Assembly (NCBI GenBank): GCA_038229875.1
Contig: JBBROA010000002.1
Location: forward strand, 1,713 to 65,712
Direction: 5' to 3'
DNA from: Thermoanaerobaculia bacterium
GTDB lineage: Bacteria; Acidobacteriota; Thermoanaerobaculia; UBA5066; Gp7-AA6
Length of the DNA: 64,000 bases
This document shows, piece after piece, positions 11,077-26,109 of this stretch. The notes below the pieces were generated by a model. That model had not been told where the DNA came from and ran no database searches. It worked only from the letters and a program-made list of their open reading frames with translations. Each line of letters starts with the position of its first letter. The stretch's first letter is position 1. The position numbers were made by a program, and so were the translations under genes.

Positions 11077-11642
11077 AGGGGGATCGCGTGAAGGATGCTT
11101 CTCCGGGCCCCGCCGACAACGGGGCCGACGCCGCGGCGAGAAAACGGCGGTCGTGGTTCTTTCTGGCCCGCTTCCTCGGTCTGCTGATCGGCTTCGCGCT
11201 TCTCGTCTCGTGGACCCCGGTAAACGATCACGCCATCGTGCCGTTCACCGCGGGCGTCGCGCATGCATCGGCCGCGGTCTTAAACGTGCTCCAGGAGCGC
11301 GTCAGCGTCGTCGGAACGGAGATTCGGGCGTCCGGCTTCGGTGTCGACATCGAGAACGGCTGCAACGGCGTCGAGACCGCGCTGCTGTTCTGCGCGGCGG
11401 TGCTCGCCTTCCCTGCTTCCTGGAAGGCGCGGGGTATCGGTCTCCTGCTCGGCTTCGTGGCGATCCAGGGCATCAACCTCGTCCGGGTGGTCTCGCTCTT
11501 CTGGATCGGCCGCCACCACCCCGCTCTTTTCTCGAGCGCTCACACGGTCATCTGGCAGTCGGCGGTCGTCCTGGCCGGCGTCCTGCTGTTCCTCCTGTGG
11601 GCCTCCCGGCAGAAGAGCGGGGCCTCTCCCGCAAACGCGTGA
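11073..11642 (+). CDS. minimal exosortase/archaeosortase-family protein (conserved Cys core only, 189 aa)
   Basis: GTG overlapping the thioesterase TGA; an alternative GTG lies at 11088 because of a 16-bp tandem duplication. GTEIRASGFGVDIENGCNGVETALLFCAAVLAF fits the exosortase G-N-x-I-x-L-P-x-G-x-F-x-V-x-E-A-C-S-G pattern. A downstream TM helix carries the N-L-V-R (NxxR) motif. It has 4-5 TM helices. Confidence 0.6.
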   Translation: MKGDRVKDASPGPADNGADAAARKRRSWFFLARFLGLLIGFALLVSWTPVNDHAIVPFTAGVAHASAAVLNVLQERVSVVGTEIRASGFGVDIENGCNGVETALLFCAAVLAFPASWKARGIGLLLGFVAIQGINLVRVVSLFWIGRHHPALFSSAHTVIWQSAVVLAGVLLFLLWASRQKSGASPANA

Positions 11643-12223
11643 CGGTCTCCCGCGCCGCGCGACGCGCGCTCATGCGCGGAGCCGCCGGGTTCGCCGTGGG
11701 TCTGGCGCTCTGGCTCGCCCTTTCCGCGCCCTACGAGCGGGCGGTCGCCTTCGCCGCGGAAGCGCTGCTGCGGCTGGGAGAGCATCCCGCGGTCACGCGG
11801 ATAACCCCTCGCGGCGGCGAGTTCGTGATCGACCGGAGCGATTTTCCTCCAGCCGCCCCGCGCCCCGGTCTCCCCGCCGCGGATCTCCACTTCAACCTGG
11901 TGATCCTTGCCGCGCTGCTCGCCGCGCTTCCGCCAGCCAGGGGCTCGCGCGTTCTGCTTGCGTTCGCGCTGCTGTACGTCGTGCACGTCGTCGCGCTCTG
12001 CTGCCAGGTGGAATCGCTTTACGCGACGCGGCTCGGGGCCTGGAGTGAGGCAAACTACGGGGCTTTTGCGCGCAACGCGTGGGCGGCCGCTTTCCACGTG
12101 TACCAGATCGCCGGACGATTCGCAGCGCCGTTTGCAATCTGGTGGCCGCTCGCCTGGCGGGAGCCCGCGGATCCGGAAGTCAGGAAAGGTCCGGCGAGAG
12201 GGAAGAAAAAGGCGAAGAGATGA
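11639..12223 (+). CDS. hypothetical polytopic membrane protein, last gene of the KS/CLF/TE/exosortase operon
   Basis: GTG overlapping the upstream TGA (GTGA). It has 3-4 hydrophobic helices and a basic tail RKGPARGKKKAKR. I recognise no domain. Confidence 0.45.
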   Translation: MTVSRAARRALMRGAAGFAVGLALWLALSAPYERAVAFAAEALLRLGEHPAVTRITPRGGEFVIDRSDFPPAAPRPGLPAADLHFNLVILAALLAALPPARGSRVLLAFALLYVVHVVALCCQVESLYATRLGAWSEANYGAFARNAWAAAFHVYQIAGRFAAPFAIWWPLAWREPADPEVRKGPARGKKKAKR

Positions 12224-12251
12224 GGAGTCCCGGGCAACCCGGGAAAGCCGG

Positions 12252-13328
12252 CTACGGGCGCTTGTTGCGGTCGCGGCGCAGGTAGCGGTAGTCGGGGACC
12301 TGATACTCCTTCAGCTTCGCGATCAGCGAGCCGCGCGAGATGTTCAGGACTTCCGCGCCGCGGCTCTGATTTCCCTGTACGCGGCGCATCGCGCGGTCGA
12401 TGACCTCGCGCTCGACGGTCTCGACGATCTTCTTCAGGTCGTCGGTCTGCCGCAGGACGGCGTCGATCTCATCCTCGTTCGGAGGCTCGACGACGACAGG
12501 CGAGGGCACCTCGGCGGGCCCTCGCTCGGAGCGGCGGACCGCGATTCCCGCCAGCTGGGCGGCCTCTTCGAGGAAAAGGATGGTCCTTGCGGGAAGCCTT
12601 GGGCTCTCGCGGACCAGGATCGCGAAGGCGCCGTCCGAAGCCGCGTTCTCGACAACCAGAGTGAGCACTCCGGCGACGCTTTCGGAGCGAACCACACGCT
12701 CGCCCCCGCGGACCTCCTCGAGAAGGCTCGGAGGAAGCGCCGGCTGGTCGACGAACGTCGAAGCGAGAAACCGGAACCCGTTTGCCGCCGTCACGTGGCC
12801 GACCGCCCACTCGCGCGGGGCGAATTCCTGATCCAGAAAATCCGTGAGAGCGATCGCGACTTCCTCCGGGCTGTCGTGCTGCCGGCACAGGCGGTAGGCG
12901 GAAAGCCGCAGGGCGCGATATTCGACTTCCGTCGCTGGCGCGGCAGACGCCTCAGGGGAGGACGATGACACGTCGTTGATGGGAATCTCGTGGACCGGCG
13001 CGGGCCGCCCGGGGTTGCTGCCGACCTGGACAACCGTGATGGTCGCCTCTCCGATCGTGATGCGATCGCCCGCCGCGATCGGCCCGCCCGAAAATTCGCG
13101 GCCGTTCACGGTGATGGCGTCGACGCCTTTATAGAGGTCGAGCTGGTAGCGGCCGTCCTTCTCGACGAAACGGATGTGGCGGCCAGCAACCCCACGCGCT
13201 CGAACGACGACTTCGTTGCCGGAAGAAGCGCCGACGGTGATCGCCGTGCCGAGCACGCGGTGCAATTCCGCCCCTCCCGCTCGTTTGCGGACTTCCAAGT
13301 TCAGCATTTTTGTCTTCTTGTCCGTCAA
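12252..13328 (-). CDS. FHA-domain transcriptional regulator with C-terminal Fis-type HTH
   Basis: The N-terminus ITVGASSGNEVVVRARGVAGRHIRFVEKDGRYQL is an FHA domain. The C-terminus RGAEVLNISRGSLIAKLKEYQV is a Fis-family HTH. The middle looks GAF-like. Confidence 0.72.
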   Translation of the reverse strand: MTDKKTKMLNLEVRKRAGGAELHRVLGTAITVGASSGNEVVVRARGVAGRHIRFVEKDGRYQLDLYKGVDAITVNGREFSGGPIAAGDRITIGEATITVVQVGSNPGRPAPVHEIPINDVSSSSPEASAAPATEVEYRALRLSAYRLCRQHDSPEEVAIALTDFLDQEFAPREWAVGHVTAANGFRFLASTFVDQPALPPSLLEEVRGGERVVRSESVAGVLTLVVENAASDGAFAILVRESPRLPARTILFLEEAAQLAGIAVRRSERGPAEVPSPVVVEPPNEDEIDAVLRQTDDLKKIVETVEREVIDRAMRRVQGNQSRGAEVLNISRGSLIAKLKEYQVPDYRYLRRDRNKRP

Positions 13329-17222: not shown

Positions 17223-17298
17223 GCCGACGTAGCTCAGTTGGTAGAGCAGCGGTTTCGTAAACCGCAGGTCCCCGGTTCAAATCCGGGCGTCGGCTCCA
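17223..17298 (+). tRNA. tRNA-Thr (anticodon CGU)
   Basis: The read is GCCGACGTAGCTCAGTTGGTAGAGCAGCGGTTTCGTAAACCGCAGGTCCCCGGTTCAAATCCGGGCGTCGGCTCCA. The 7-bp acceptor stem GCCGACG/CGTCGGC closes it. The D-loop reads AGCTCAGTTGGTAGAGC. The anticodon loop reads TTCGTAA. The T-loop reads GGTTCAAATCC. CCA is encoded. Confidence 0.9.
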
Positions 17299-17407
17299 TC
17301 ACCCGCTTCGGGCGTCGCGGTCCGCGTCGCGACGGCCGGTTCCCCCCGGAATCGTCCCGGCCTCACAATGCGGTGAGACGCCATTGCATCCGCGACGAAG
17401 GAGATCC

Positions 17408-17704
17408 ATGCGGATCGCTTTTCATGCCTTGCGGGCCGGCAGCCGGTTCGGCCGCCTCTTCACCGCCGTGGCGCTCTCTCTGGCGCTCCTGACCGTGCCC
17501 GCGTGCCACGGATCTGGCACCCCGCGACCGAAACCGTCAACGCTCTCGCCCGCGCGGCGAGGAATCCACACCTACCACTTGCGGCTCGGCGTTCGGGTTT
17601 CCCGAGCGGCAGTCAGAGATCCAATCACTAGTTCCAAACGAAGGACATTGACGTTCTTCGAGGGCTTTCCGGTCACCCTTCGGAAGCCCGAACCCGACTG
17701 CTAG
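17408..17704 (+). CDS. possible small secreted protein or lipoprotein (98 aa)
   Basis: AAGGAG Shine-Dalgarno 5 nt before the ATG. MRIAFHALRAGSRFGRLFTAVALSLALLTVPAC is a signal peptide with a Cys at a lipobox-like position. Confidence 0.3.
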   Translation: MRIAFHALRAGSRFGRLFTAVALSLALLTVPACHGSGTPRPKPSTLSPARRGIHTYHLRLGVRVSRAAVRDPITSSKRRTLTFFEGFPVTLRKPEPDC

Positions 17705-17976
17705 CCCCCGGCTGCGGCGGAGTCGGCGGAACGAGGCTAACCTGCTACGGCGGCCCGGAGGGAGTCTGTAGAAGTCGAAAAGAGATTCTCCGCGCGTATC
17801 TGGAGAAGCTCGCCGTGCGCGGTAAGGCTAAGGCCGCTAAGTACTCGACCATTCTTAGTATCAGGGTTTTCGCATCACGCGACCGTAAACCCTGACGAGG
17901 ACAATAAAGATCGTCAAGACGGCCAAGATTAATAAGACTTCAGGTAACCCGATCCGTCCAAACATAAGCGTCCCCC

Positions 17977-20340
17977 TTACCGTCCGCCGGGAGTAACGAA
18001 GCCCGGCCGGTCCTGTTGCCATGCGAGGCTGACGCCAGTCGTCATCGGAACGCCAATGATTCCGATCATGTCTTTGACATCTTTGTAAGGGTCGTAGCGG
18101 TTAGCGGCATCTCCGCCCGGTGAAAGCGCTAGGACCACGTACGATCCGGGAGAGAGCAAGTCACAGGCATGTACCTCGGAATTCATGTCAGGCTGCATTA
18201 ACGATTCGATTGACAGCCCGTTAGCAGCCGCGGCCTGCCGAAGCACGGAAATGGGTATTTCCATCCCGTTCCTGACGAAAAGCAGAATAGCGTCTCGACG
18301 TGGAACCCCGAGCTTCCCGAGCACCTTGAGGCCCGGACCTGAAACAAATGGCGACAAAGTTAAAGTTAACGTGTTTGTCTTCTCATCCGCAGACGGATCG
18401 GCGCTGGCGGGTAAGAGGGCGGTTTGAACGGTGAATCCAGGGGCGAATACGTAAACGGGGAGCATTTCCCCCGCCAGCTCCTCGAGGACAAGCTCACCTT
18501 GCCCGTCCGTAACACCGAGCGAGCGCAGCGGAGCCAGGCGAGGCGCCATGCGACGCGGATGGACCGGCACCATTACTTGCGCATTAGGAATGCCTTCGCC
18601 CCTGAGATCTCGAACGGCGACTCTGAACGGGGCCGCCTTGTCCAAATCGATCTCAAGGTTCCGAGTCTCCGTGCCAAGAGCGTCGACAAGGAGTTGTTTT
18701 CGCGAGTGGCCCTCGGCTCTTCCGGCGATCGTCAAGGTCCCGTCCTCGAGATCTCCGAAGGACGCTTTCCCGAACTCATCGGTGGGTTTCGTTTCCGAGC
18801 GGTGCTCTCCCGCCAGGCTTTCAAAGCTGGCATCCAAGAGCCCCGGAATGGGGCGGCCCGATGAGCGGTCTCGGAGGGTTACTGCGACAGTTCCACCCCT
18901 GAAAACGATATCGAAAAGCGTCTCGGGTTCCTTCGCCTCAACGCTACCCCCTCGGCGCGTTCCGTCCGGAAGCGACGCCGAAACGTAGACATGACATGCG
19001 CACCCTACAGTCAACGCGTAGCTACCATCTGCGCTCGAGATCGTTTCGCCTAACGTCGTACTCTCTTGACCCATGATTCTGGCGAACGGGATGATTCTGA
19101 TCGCGGCGTCAGCTGCGGGTTGGTCCCCGCGAAGTACCCGCCCTCTGACCACTCTCGAAGCAAACACCACTGTGAGACTTGGGTTCTCGGCTGTCGCGAC
19201 GTCCACGTCTTTTTCGCCGTAAGCCCACAAGCCGGCGGCTTTTCCCTCAGCCCTGTAATGCCCCGACTCGGAGATGGGTATCTCGACACTGTTCCCTTGG
19301 GCGAGATCACCTCGCCAGACGATTGTTTCGGAGCCCCTCCTGGTTACTTCCAACGCGTTGGCTGACGTAACGTTCTCTGTGATCTTCTTGAGGACGACAT
19401 TCACGTCGCCAGCAAGGGGCGAATCTGATTTCGCGCTCACCACCAATTTTGGAAGTGTTCTGAGTGCGATGTCAAAAAATCGGTCCCCCTGTGCCCTCGA
19501 AATCTCCCTGGCATTGACCTCCGCCGGACGATAACCTGCCACTCGGACATTCCAGGAATGAGGCACTTCGGGGAGACGATCTACGACAACATTTCCCGAA
19601 GCGTCTGGACGGAGTGTCCGAGATTCTAACCAGAGCGCGACCAGCCGCCCAGAAGCGGTTGATCCGGCAGAAACCCAGTTCACAGTGATTCTTGTCACAT
19701 CGCCGGGAGGTGGTCGAAGACGGATCGTTTCAGCGTGACCCCGTTGAGAGATCGGCGACGCAAGGCTCCTCGCTTCGCCCGGAAGTAGGGCAAGATCGGG
19801 GATGATGGCGGGGGCGGACTCGCCATCATCGAACAAAACGTCCCACCGGTCGGGTGGAAGAACGAACGCGACTACGCTTGGCGATGGCGATGACGTATCG
19901 GCTCGCATCTCCCGGCGCCCGTCCTGAGAACGTGCCACCAAAAGAGGGGGATTCGTCGCCCGAACCGGTCTTGGCAGCCTGATTTGCAGTGTAGCGAGCG
20001 CGTTGAATGTTACGGGCTGTCGCCATTGAGCCCGGGGTAGAGTGACGACATCAAACCCGGGCGCGGTGAGCGTCAGCTCGGTCATTGACTCTTCAACCGG
20101 CAGGACTATCGTATCGGCGTGCGGCGTCAGGATCTGGTCAAATGTGCGAATCCCCTTCACGCCGGCGCCGACTACACGGATCGACTTGGAAGCGGATCGG
20201 CCTACCCATCGGAGCGAGAGTCTGATCTGGCGGATCGATGCCTTTTCCGAGCCCGCCTGACTCGGGTTCGGTGGCGAAACGGGCTGGGAGGAAGTGATAG
20301 CCGCGAAAAAAAAGATGGTGGCAGCGCCGAGGTATCCCAT
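17977..20340 (-). CDS. large secreted protein with multiple carboxypeptidase-regulatory-like (CarbopepD_reg) Ig-like domains
   Basis: GGAGGA Shine-Dalgarno. Signal peptide MGYLGAATIFFFAAITSS. Repeated RGRVLRGDQPAADAAIRIIP...SADGSYAL modules. TAA stop. Local GC is about 55-58% against roughly 69% background. Confidence 0.7.
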   Translation of the reverse strand: MGYLGAATIFFFAAITSSQPVSPPNPSQAGSEKASIRQIRLSLRWVGRSASKSIRVVGAGVKGIRTFDQILTPHADTIVLPVEESMTELTLTAPGFDVVTLPRAQWRQPVTFNALATLQIRLPRPVRATNPPLLVARSQDGRREMRADTSSPSPSVVAFVLPPDRWDVLFDDGESAPAIIPDLALLPGEARSLASPISQRGHAETIRLRPPPGDVTRITVNWVSAGSTASGRLVALWLESRTLRPDASGNVVVDRLPEVPHSWNVRVAGYRPAEVNAREISRAQGDRFFDIALRTLPKLVVSAKSDSPLAGDVNVVLKKITENVTSANALEVTRRGSETIVWRGDLAQGNSVEIPISESGHYRAEGKAAGLWAYGEKDVDVATAENPSLTVVFASRVVRGRVLRGDQPAADAAIRIIPFARIMGQESTTLGETISSADGSYALTVGCACHVYVSASLPDGTRRGGSVEAKEPETLFDIVFRGGTVAVTLRDRSSGRPIPGLLDASFESLAGEHRSETKPTDEFGKASFGDLEDGTLTIAGRAEGHSRKQLLVDALGTETRNLEIDLDKAAPFRVAVRDLRGEGIPNAQVMVPVHPRRMAPRLAPLRSLGVTDGQGELVLEELAGEMLPVYVFAPGFTVQTALLPASADPSADEKTNTLTLTLSPFVSGPGLKVLGKLGVPRRDAILLFVRNGMEIPISVLRQAAAANGLSIESLMQPDMNSEVHACDLLSPGSYVVLALSPGGDAANRYDPYKDVKDMIGIIGVPMTTGVSLAWQQDRPGFVTPGGR

Positions 20341-20398
20341 TTGTCCTCCTCAACCCGTCGCCAGAATGTCGAATACAGTCGAACCTGAACGCTGACTG

Positions 20399-20767
20399 TT
20401 AATAGAGAGGCGATCGCATCAGGCATCCACCGTAAAGATCGGTCCACCAGCAGTCCAATCCAGGGCCGTATAAGGGATCACGATCCGGTCGGTTGTCAGC
20501 CGGGCCGTAATATTCGCACCTGTTCCCATTGGAGTTGCACTGGGGCCAAGGCGACATGAAGGTGTAGCAGTGATCGGTTCCCGGCGGGTCTCCATATGTG
20601 ACCGTGGCGCAAAACCCAGTTTGGAGCGTCTGGGTTCCGAGCTGTATCTCGTTGCAGGCTTCGCAAGCCGTTGCCTGCGTTGGATATAGCATCAACAAGA
20701 GCAGAGCTCCACTCAGAACGAGAAGACTTCGAGGGACCTTTCCCCCGCCCGGTCGGTAAGGACGCAT
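20399..20767 (-). CDS. small cysteine-rich secreted protein (8 Cys, about 90-aa mature peptide)
   Basis: AGGAGG Shine-Dalgarno 6 nt before the ATG. MRPYRPGGGKVPRSLLVLSGALLLLMLYPTQATA is the signal peptide. The mature part is ACEAC...GFC...DHC...PQC...NRC...LDC...GGC. It is co-directional with, and 58 bp upstream of, the large CarbopepD protein. Confidence 0.6.
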   Translation of the reverse strand: MRPYRPGGGKVPRSLLVLSGALLLLMLYPTQATACEACNEIQLGTQTLQTGFCATVTYGDPPGTDHCYTFMSPWPQCNSNGNRCEYYGPADNRPDRDPLYGPGLDCWWTDLYGGCLMRSPLY

Positions 20768-21268
20768 ACGCCCCCTCCTAATAGATCTGCGACACCAAAA
20801 GGATGCCGGATCTGACACCTTCTTGTCGCGAGGATCCAGAGACCGTAAGGCACCCCCCAATTGACGGTTGCGCAGAGGCCGTTCACACGAGAGTCGTCGT
20901 CTTGACCCGAACGCGACTGCAGTCGCCCCCTCGTCCTTCGTTGCCTACGGAGAACCAAAAGGACTCCCCCAACGTCCCCACAGTGGCACCGGGCGGCTAC
21001 GCCTCCGGGCGTCCCCCAACCCCGGGGCACTCCCCCCAGACTGCCGGACACGAGAACGAAGGCTGGTGGGCACACACCGAGCAGGGTTTACGCCGCGACA
21101 AACCCCCTCCGCGAGCTTTTTCCCCTGCTGAAGCTCTGGTGGTGTACGCTATCGTACATTAAAGCCGCCGCTGGCCTCTCCCGCATCGTTTCCACCCTCT
21201 CCGAGCGGCTCCTGGAAGGTCCGCCTGTCCGCGATTTTGAGGCATCCGCGCCCTGGCCGCGGAGAAGT

Positions 21269-24608: not shown

Positions 24609-24716
24609 TCGATCGATGTCGAGCGTCGACCCTTCAGCGACTCGTCTTTCCCCGTACCCTTCCCCCGGACAGTTTCCGCCGCGCGCGCGAAATGCACGCA
24701 ACTCCCTTCGGGCCTT

Positions 24717-24951
24717 CTCACCCCGACCCTCTCCCCGAGCGCGGACAGAGGGAGGTGGCGTCTCTCATCTCAATCTCGAATACGCTCGCCCGGAGAGGAG
24801 TCTCCTGACCGAAGGGAAGGAGGAGCCTCTCCGGGCGGGAGCGAAGCGAGCGGAGGGAGAAGGCGGGCGGTCGAAGGCCGCACCCGGCCGAGCCGCCCGC
24901 CGGTGCCGTTCGCGGCCGCGAACGGCAGCTCCCGGAGCGAGCGGAGCGACG
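24717..24951 (+). repeat. structured dispersed repeat, copy A (about 235 bp)
   Basis: About 85% identical to copy B. Internal hairpins are CCCTCTCC...GGAGAGGG, GGCGGGCGG...CCGCCCGCC and GCCGTTCGC-GGCC-GCGAACGGC. It lies in the 5' region of the DGQHR gene. Confidence 0.75.
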
Positions 24952-24984
24952 TTCTATACTCCCCCCAAAGATAAGGGGGCCAGG

Positions 24985-26109
24985 ATGCTGTCCGTTCCCT
25001 CACTCCGACTGAACCAGTTCGGCGTGCGGTTCTATGAGGCTCTGCTTTCCGGAGCGGATCTCCAGACACTCGTTGGTTTTGAGGTGCTGTCCTTCGGGGC
25101 CGGCAGCCAGACGACCCGCGGAAAAGCGAAGGCCGGCGGGCGGGTCAACTGGGAGTTCCTGGAGAAGAAGATCGGCTCGTCCGAACAGGCTTTCCAACGG
25201 CCGATCATCCAGAAGAAGATCGAGGAGCTGGTCGCCTACTACCTCCAATGCGCCGACTCCGGGACCCTGCCGGCGATCGCAGGCAGCGTGCTGTTAGTGT
25301 CCGAGAAGCGCCTCGACTTTGCCCCGTCGGGCGGGCGAAGCGACATCGGGACCCTGAAGCTGCCCGACGAAGGCGGCATCCTTCGAGCCCTGGACGGCCA
25401 GCACCGCCTGCTCGCGCTCCACCAGCTCGCCGAGAAGCACAACCTGAAGGACTTCCAGGTCCCCGCGGTCGTGTTCGACGCCCTGACCGCAGACCAGGTC
25501 GTCGAGCTCTTCGTCACGATCAACAGCAAGCACACGAAGCTGAACCCCTCGCACCTGATCTCTCTCTCGGGGCGCCGGCTCTACCGAGACGAGAATCTCG
25601 CCGCGGCGCACGACGTCATCCGCAGCCTGAACGAGGACGAGCACTCGCCTCTGCGCGGACAGATCAAGGTGCTCGGCATCGGAAAGGGCGCCGTGACGCA
25701 GGCCTCGCTCGCGGACGAGCTCCGCGACGTGTTCGCCGCGATGGACGCGGCGGGCGGGCGCATGGCGAAGGAGTTTCGTGAGAACGCCCGCCGCTTCTTT
25801 CTGAACTACTTCAAGGCCGCGGGGCGCGCTTTCCCGGCGGCGTTCGCGGGACGGAAATATTCGATCAAGAGCGCGACGTCCCTGCGAGCGTTCATCCGGA
25901 TCGTGCCCTACGTCATCGCGATGATCCGGAGCCGCGCCGGAGACGTGTGGTCGTCGGGAGAGCTCGACGCGGCGCTGCGGCCCTGGTCCGAGGCCGTAGG
26001 CGACAAGCGCTTCGAGACGGAAGGCGCATGGAAAGAGAAGATGACCGGCGGGACGCGCTCGGCCGTCGAGATCCTCGCGCGCGAGCTTCGACAGGGCTTG
26101 AACACCTGA
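24985..26109 (+). CDS. DGQHR-domain protein (DndB/DpdB-like, ParB/Srx fold)
   Basis: AAGGGGG Shine-Dalgarno. MLSVPSLRLNQFGVRFYEALLSG...ILRALDGQHRLLALHQL...VVELFVTINSKHTKLN matches the DGQHR family. Confidence 0.8.
   Translation: MLSVPSLRLNQFGVRFYEALLSGADLQTLVGFEVLSFGAGSQTTRGKAKAGGRVNWEFLEKKIGSSEQAFQRPIIQKKIEELVAYYLQCADSGTLPAIAGSVLLVSEKRLDFAPSGGRSDIGTLKLPDEGGILRALDGQHRLLALHQLAEKHNLKDFQVPAVVFDALTADQVVELFVTINSKHTKLNPSHLISLSGRRLYRDENLAAAHDVIRSLNEDEHSPLRGQIKVLGIGKGAVTQASLADELRDVFAAMDAAGGRMAKEFRENARRFFLNYFKAAGRAFPAAFAGRKYSIKSATSLRAFIRIVPYVIAMIRSRAGDVWSSGELDAALRPWSEAVGDKRFETEGAWKEKMTGGTRSAVEILARELRQGLNT

Follow-up and report, generated by a model that had tools for sequence, protein, structure and literature searches.

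Small disulfide-rich proteins secreted by bacteria are often toxins, bacteriocins or inhibitors. The described proteins that come closest to the one reported here are the Streptomyces subtilisin inhibitor (SSI), tendamistat and bacterial defensin-like peptides, with which it shares a signal peptide, a size of about 10 kDa and an even number of cysteines; like them, it is also beta-rich, in its case by prediction. It differs from SSI and tendamistat, which have four cysteines, in having eight. Compared with all three, it is set apart by its acidic, lysine-free composition, by the lack of a sequence match in Pfam or the PDB and by sharing its operon with the gene for a large beta-sandwich protein. 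A second group of relevant systems comprises the small carbohydrate-binding modules (CBM5/12 and hevein-type), which are likewise rich in Trp, Tyr, Gly, Pro, Asn and Asp. Composition of this kind, i.e., rich in aromatic residues, Gly, Pro, Asn and Asp and stapled by disulfides, typifies small modules that bind ligands or glycans. However, the cysteine pattern of the small protein is unlike that of hevein-type modules, and the protein is free-standing, unlike the enzyme-fused carbohydrate-binding modules. One of its loops, C-W-W-T-D-L-Y-G-G-C, superficially recalls the W-W-T-x-G ("WWT") motif of CBM5/12. Assignment to the CBM5/12 chitin-binding module (PF02839) was rejected, as there was no Pfam match at E <= 10 and the WWT tripeptide is all that the two have in common.

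The genomic setting can be compared with two further described systems. As in tRNA-associated genomic islands, the insert that carries the gene starts directly where a tRNA gene has its 3' end, is absent in close relatives, has an atypical GC3 and occupies a site that holds other cargo in sister genomes; it differs from such islands in lacking both an integrase and a repeat of the tRNA end and in being only 3.8 kb long. As with the ORFan or singleton genes of MAGs, the small gene is without a database relative and lies in a variable accessory region. What distinguishes it from many MAG singletons is the strength of its translation and export signals together with a markedly non-random Cys content. 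The gene adds one single-copy case to a familiar class, namely the lineage-specific orphan secreted protein on a small, tRNA-linked accessory insert.

The window, i.e., the whole stretch of 64,000 nucleotides of a Thermoanaerobaculia metagenome contig that was analyzed, contains this gene together with the features collected in the table. Taken as a whole, the locus is probably best explained by a genuine Sec-exported, disulfide-held small protein that is encoded in an operon with a 787-aa protein on a horizontally acquired cassette.

Table 1. Features of the insert and its left border, in window coordinates
Feature	Position	Strand	Basis
tRNA-Thr (CGU), with its 3' end forming the left insert border	17223..17298	+	only Rfam match
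Strain-specific insert, ~3.8 kb, of lower GC and missing from syntenic relatives	17299..~21139		
98-aa ORF with AAGGAG box and signal/lipobox-like N-terminus (…LALLTVPAC/HGSG), convergent with the operon	17408..17704	+	called on Logan contig L002
34-aa single-transmembrane peptide MFGRIGLPEVLLILAVLTIFIVLVRVYGRVMRKP with GGGGGA box, probable third cistron	17861..17965	-	called on Logan contig L002
787-aa protein with hydrophobic N-terminus and CarboxypepD_reg-type beta-sandwich domains	17977..20340	-	Pfam PF13620, E = 6e-12
Intercistronic spacer, 58 nt, with the GAGGAGG box (20345-20351) of the 787-aa gene	20341..20398	-	
Small ORF (122 codons and TAA stop), first cistron of the insert operon	20399..20767	-	translation; independent gene call
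Mature domain of the small protein, 88 aa, 8 Cys	20402..20665	-	
Signal peptide of the small protein, residues 1-34, MRPYRPGGGKVPRSLLVLSGALLLLMLYPTQATA	20666..20767	-	translation reading and heuristic; predicted SPase I cleavage after ATA
Shine-Dalgarno box AGGAGG, 6-nt spacer to the ATG at 20767	20774..20779	-	

An earlier sequence-only reading had described a 122-aa precursor with a Sec signal and a mature part of about 90 aa containing eight Cys. This description was accurate in substance, although it left the strand unstated (the gene lies on the minus strand). Exact translation gives a precursor composed of MRPYRPGGGKVPRSLLVLSGALLLLMLYPTQATA followed by CEACNEIQLGTQTLQTGFCATVTYGDPPGTDHCYTFMSPWPQCNSNGNRCEYYGPADNRPDRDPLYGPGLDCWWTDLYGGCLMRSPLY, with the predicted cleavage between the two segments, before C35 (…PTQATA/CEAC…), and all eight Cys fall in the mature part. 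The n-region, MRPYRPGGGKVPR, has a charge of +4 and is followed by an uncharged, hydrophobic h-region of 15 residues, SLLVLSGALLLLMLY, and by a c-region of 6 residues, PTQATA, with Ala at -3 and -1 and Pro at -6. Read in this way and scored with a heuristic, the protein has the basic n-region, the uncharged h-region of 10-15 residues and the small residues at -3 and -1 that define Sec/SPase I substrates. Gene calling carried out independently on Logan contig L001 arrived at the same product of 122 aa. An alternative upstream start, the TTG at 20860, lacks an AGGAGG box and would make the signal peptide internal.

The mature protein has a mass of 9.9 kDa, a pI of 4.2 and no Lys. Its Cys residues occupy positions 1, 4, 19, 33, 43, 50, 72 and 81, giving the pattern C-x2-C-x14-C-x13-C-x9-C-x6-C-x21-C-x8-C (spacings of 2, 14, 13, 9, 6, 21 and 8). 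Aromatic residues account for 13.6% of the mature sequence (7 Tyr, 3 Trp and 2 Phe), and Gly, Pro, Asn and Asp are also abundant. Following translation from the ATG at 20767, the precursor would be exported via the Sec pathway, where SPase I would most likely cleave it after Ala34; the released acidic chain of about 9.9 kDa would then adopt a compact, beta-rich fold in the extracytoplasmic space, presumably held by up to four disulfides. Several other assignments were considered and rejected. Residues 1-13 lack the RR pair of the Tat motif S/T-R-R-x-F-L-K, and the sole CxxC, found in CEACN, is not the CXXCH of a c-type cytochrome. Nor is the protein a Cys-rich RiPP precursor of the SCIFF, ranthipeptide or sactipeptide type, as its N-terminus is a Sec signal and there is no radical-SAM neighbor; the neighbors present are the 787-aa beta-sandwich protein, the 34-aa peptide, a response regulator and an S8 protease.

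Judging from these sequence features, the small ORF is very likely to encode a real exported protein. The competing view is that the 928 bp between the 787-aa and response-regulator genes serve the insert as a leader or promoter without coding function, in which an ORF, an SD-like box and a hydrophobic stretch coincide by accident. Part of the evidence is compatible with such a spurious ORF. In simulations with a first-order Markov model of island composition, an ORF of at least 100 codons was present in 85% of random 928-bp sequences; thus, length alone is uninformative. The codon-position GC of the small ORF (0.56/0.54/0.61) shows weak periodicity, and a codon model trained on the 787-aa gene did not discriminate between frames or favor that of the small ORF. 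The ORF is on record from a Logan contig only and is absent from the NCBI assembly calls that gave the 787-aa protein, which indicates that one gene-calling run skipped it.

The translation and export signals argue against coincidence. An SD box together with a signal-peptide-like N-terminus occurred in 1 of 5000 simulated gaps (0.02%), and the further presence of at least six mature Cys in none of 5000. The 64-kb window contains 1233 starts that open an ORF of at least 100 codons. An SD box accompanies 30 of them, a signal-peptide-like N-terminus 41 and both features 3, one of which is the small ORF. The eight mature Cys compare with 2.5 expected (P = 0.003), and the Cys content of real proteins in the window is 0.5%. 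Amino-acid composition points in the same direction: the log-odds score of the small ORF (real versus out-of-frame ORFs) is +0.11, the highest among all ORFs in the 928-bp gap, where real genes score 0.11-0.40 and spurious ORFs -0.20 +/- 0.18. The difference is apparent in Arg, which makes up 4.5% of the small protein versus 19.6% of spurious ORFs. Moreover, a spurious ORF would imply an unusually long gene-free stretch of 928 bp within a 3.8-kb insert. The same DNA was recovered from two further assemblies. Logan contig L001 (SRR19962015; 1569 bp) corresponds to window 19421-20989 with 100% identity, and L002 (SRR24807096) corresponds to window 17241-20398 and ends at the first base past the stop codon of the small ORF. 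The three assemblies are 100% identical over shared DNA and hence offer no population variation for a selection test.

Searches for relatives were extensive, including the metagenome search that had been proposed for homologs of the small protein. A word-index search of 5.8 billion clusters returned the identical sequence alone (Logan run SRR19962015). An exhaustive phmmer search over 1.84 billion representatives returned the protein itself and three repeat proteins (E = 2.6e-5 to 5.7e-4), which on inspection were compositional matches and were discarded. No relatives were found among JGI metagenome contigs queried with the small and 787-aa proteins, among IMG/VR viral contigs or by tblastn against plasmids and phages, and a six-frame phmmer search of 929 kb of related Thermoanaerobaculia loci detected no relative of the small protein. 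Pfam, NCBIfam, PHROGs and PADLOC gave no family for the precursor at E <= 1, and a profile search with the mature part gave none at E <= 10. The best match in a PDB sequence search was a chance match to a GH9 endoglucanase (E = 1.6). These searches yielded identical copies only and no diverged homolog with conserved Cys spacing. Single-sequence AF2 gave a model of low confidence (pLDDT 49.4) consisting mostly of short strands, for which Foldseek found no match with E < 6.9 in the PDB; with a model of such poor quality, this result does not count against a knottin, defensin or inhibitor fold. A literature search on cysteine-rich secreted proteins of Thermoanaerobaculia gave fungal and plant papers only.

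The initial impression that no homology could be recognized is therefore confirmed by the absence of any homolog among about 15 billion proteins. This absence can be cited in favor of a spurious ORF, and the sequence-only reading had indeed proposed that an ORF without homologs or conserved Cys spacing anywhere would be spurious. Formally, that is the situation found, but the reasoning was judged faulty in light of the neighboring gene. A stretch of 787 codons cannot be a chance ORF, yet a database search with the 787-aa protein likewise matched itself alone; the lack of relatives is thus a property of the whole cassette. Since an undoubtedly real neighbor is equally orphan, the absence of relatives is no argument against the small gene, and a spurious ORF appears unlikely. 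As a methodological reminder, orphan status does not equal non-gene status when a neighbor that is certainly real is equally orphan.

The acquired nature of the insert, suspected from the start, is well supported by its absence from six syntenic relatives, its low GC3 and its border at the 3' end of tRNA-Thr. With the SMC C-terminus as a probe, 49 syntenic loci were collected, all from Acidobacteriota MAGs, many of which are labelled Thermoanaerobaculia; among GTDB species representatives, the SMC C-terminus was at most 97% identical at the amino-acid level. The gene order SMC, tRNA-Thr, response regulator and S8 protease is kept in L003-L006, L008 and L009. Synteny runs on to the DndB-like, LemA and HtpX genes in L003, L005, L008 and L009, and the contigs of L004 and L006 end earlier. 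All four ORFs of the insert, i.e., those of 122, 787, 34 and 98 aa, are missing from these six relatives. In the closest relative, L003, the flanks are 92-95% identical at the DNA level, and homology breaks off at the last base of the tRNA and restarts at about 21118-21140. The GC3 values of two island genes are 0.61 and 0.63, compared with 0.77-0.91 for neighboring host genes. Strong SD boxes precede all four island ORFs versus one of the six nearby host genes checked (LemA, GAGGAG), the host genes for SMC, HtpX and DGQHR being without one. This difference in SD use between insert and host genes parallels the difference in GC3. No integrase or transposase domain was found, nor was an att-type direct repeat of 14 nt or more derived from the tRNA end.

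Other genomes carry different DNA at the same position. L003 contains a different 1.8-kb cassette (11236-13013), which encodes a 159-aa signal-peptide protein with 4 Cys (12364-12843, minus strand) and a 140-aa ORF (11565-11987, minus strand), both with zero Pfam matches. L005 contains an EamA-family half-transporter (11260-11688). The remaining relatives have next to nothing at this position; in L004, L006 and L008, only about 0.75-0.9 kb separates the SMC and response-regulator genes. Cargo is swapped at the 3' flank of tRNA-Thr in this lineage, where three close genomes have three different cargos.

Two further observations concern the surroundings of the site. A gene for a 497-aa DndB/DGQHR-type protein (PF14072, E = 8e-15) is located at window 24616-26109 on the plus strand, between the gene for the S8 protease, which has a CBM48 domain, and the LemA-HtpX pair; it is conserved in all close relatives and so lies outside the insert. 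In two more distant relatives, tandem 174-aa secreted proteins with 4 Cys (L023, 18111-19190; L029, 19474-20050) are encoded near a second partial tRNA-Thr match. These proteins look like spore-coat-U or Csu-type pilins and are unrelated to the small eight-Cys protein.

Within the insert, the coordinates agree with the proposal that the small gene is the first cistron of a co-oriented operon and that the 787-aa gene follows it on the same strand, 58 bp downstream. Each cistron has its own SD box. The intercistronic spacer holds no hairpin beyond chance (fold z-score = -0.58), and a promoter and terminator scan upstream of the small gene gave nothing convincing. The 787-aa protein had been read as a secreted protein with multiple Ig-like domains. 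Beta-sandwich domains are present, but a single one, of the CarboxypepD_reg type, passes the Pfam threshold, with two or three more copies below it. Its signal peptide is weak and lacks a basic n-region, and its single-sequence AF2 model was unusable (pLDDT 34). The ORF of the 34-aa peptide begins 11 nt past the stop codon of the 787-aa gene. The peptide matched no Pfam family even at E <= 10 and had a single weak PHROG match (phrog_2852, E = 0.021); by eye, its residues 1-20 are TatA-like. The 98-aa ORF on the opposite strand is another orphan inside the same insert and is absent from relatives. The small gene would be co-transcribed with those of the exported 787-aa beta-sandwich protein and the 34-aa membrane peptide, and this operon and the convergent 98-aa ORF would together make up an accessory cassette of 3.8 kb that entered the genome by horizontal transfer at the 3' end of tRNA-Thr.

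With regard to function, the operon position and composition of the small protein suggest, with low confidence, that its most likely role is to assist or bind the 787-aa surface protein as a partner outside the cytoplasm. Such a partner is tentatively favored over an enzyme or a stand-alone toxin because the operon linkage is tight and the composition is typical of small binding modules.

A different role was suggested by the sequence-only reading, which listed toxins, bacteriocins, protease inhibitors and novel secreted effectors as candidates. In such a case, the product would be a disulfide-stabilized bacteriocin or toxin, or an inhibitor of proteases or other hydrolases, directed against competitors or foreign enzymes, and the 34-aa membrane peptide might serve as immunity. 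A small, exported, Cys-rich and strain-specific protein on a horizontally acquired cassette fits this proposal, as do the tiny transmembrane ORF in the same operon and the precedent of other small disulfide-rich secreted proteins. However, no family, fold or context match emerged to sustain it: models of toxins, bacteriocins and inhibitors in Pfam, NCBIfam, PADLOC, PHROGs and the PDB gave zero matches, and the locus contains no dedicated exporter, maturation gene or recognizable immunity gene. In addition, the protein is lysine-free with a pI of 4.2, which sets it apart from most membrane-active cationic bacteriocins, and a 787-aa beta-sandwich protein is not usual in bacteriocin loci. An antagonistic effector is therefore a rather improbable reading of the gene.

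It is also improbable, to a greater degree, that the small protein is a lipoprotein with an SPase II site, at which the Cys that follows ATA, as residue +1, would be lipidated, anchoring the domain to a membrane and leaving seven Cys. The Cys at +1 does stand right after a small residue, and Ala at -1 and Thr at -2 fit a lipobox. In the sequence Q-A-T-A-C, these are the only positions that fit; Ala at -3 and Gln at -4 agree neither with the lipobox [LVI][ASTVI][GAS]C nor with PROSITE PS51257. The 6-residue c-region, the Pro at -6 and the A-x-A form an SPase I signature, and lipidation would leave an odd number of Cys. Finally, the notion that the small ORF is a pseudogene fragment, i.e., the N-terminus of a larger secreted protein split from the 787-aa ORF by a frameshift, accords with the strong signal peptide of the former and the weak one of the latter, but it is highly improbable and largely refuted, as the two ORFs are in different frames, two stop codons stand just upstream of the 787 ATG in the 787 frame, each ORF has a strong SD box and the sequence is identical across three independent assemblies.

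Besides the Sec-exported partner protein as the preferred reading, a bolder one can be formulated. The 88-aa domain could found a new disulfide-rich fold of which it is as yet the sole member, transferred horizontally from an unsampled donor and acting outside the cell as a ligand- or glycan-binding cap for the 787-aa surface protein or as an antagonistic effector. This reading is speculative and on balance doubtful. If true, the four-ORF cassette would represent an accessory module of a new type in Acidobacteriota, serving at the surface or in competition.

To a specialist, the locus will be unsurprising, and it makes no long-standing question testable. Its practical value is limited, as the organism is known from metagenome assemblies only, there is no family from which to generalize and no activity can be inferred. 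If the small gene is real and functional, the accessory secretome of soil Acidobacteriota (Thermoanaerobaculia), of which little is known, would gain an orphan exported protein that is rich in disulfides, along with its orphan 787-aa partner.
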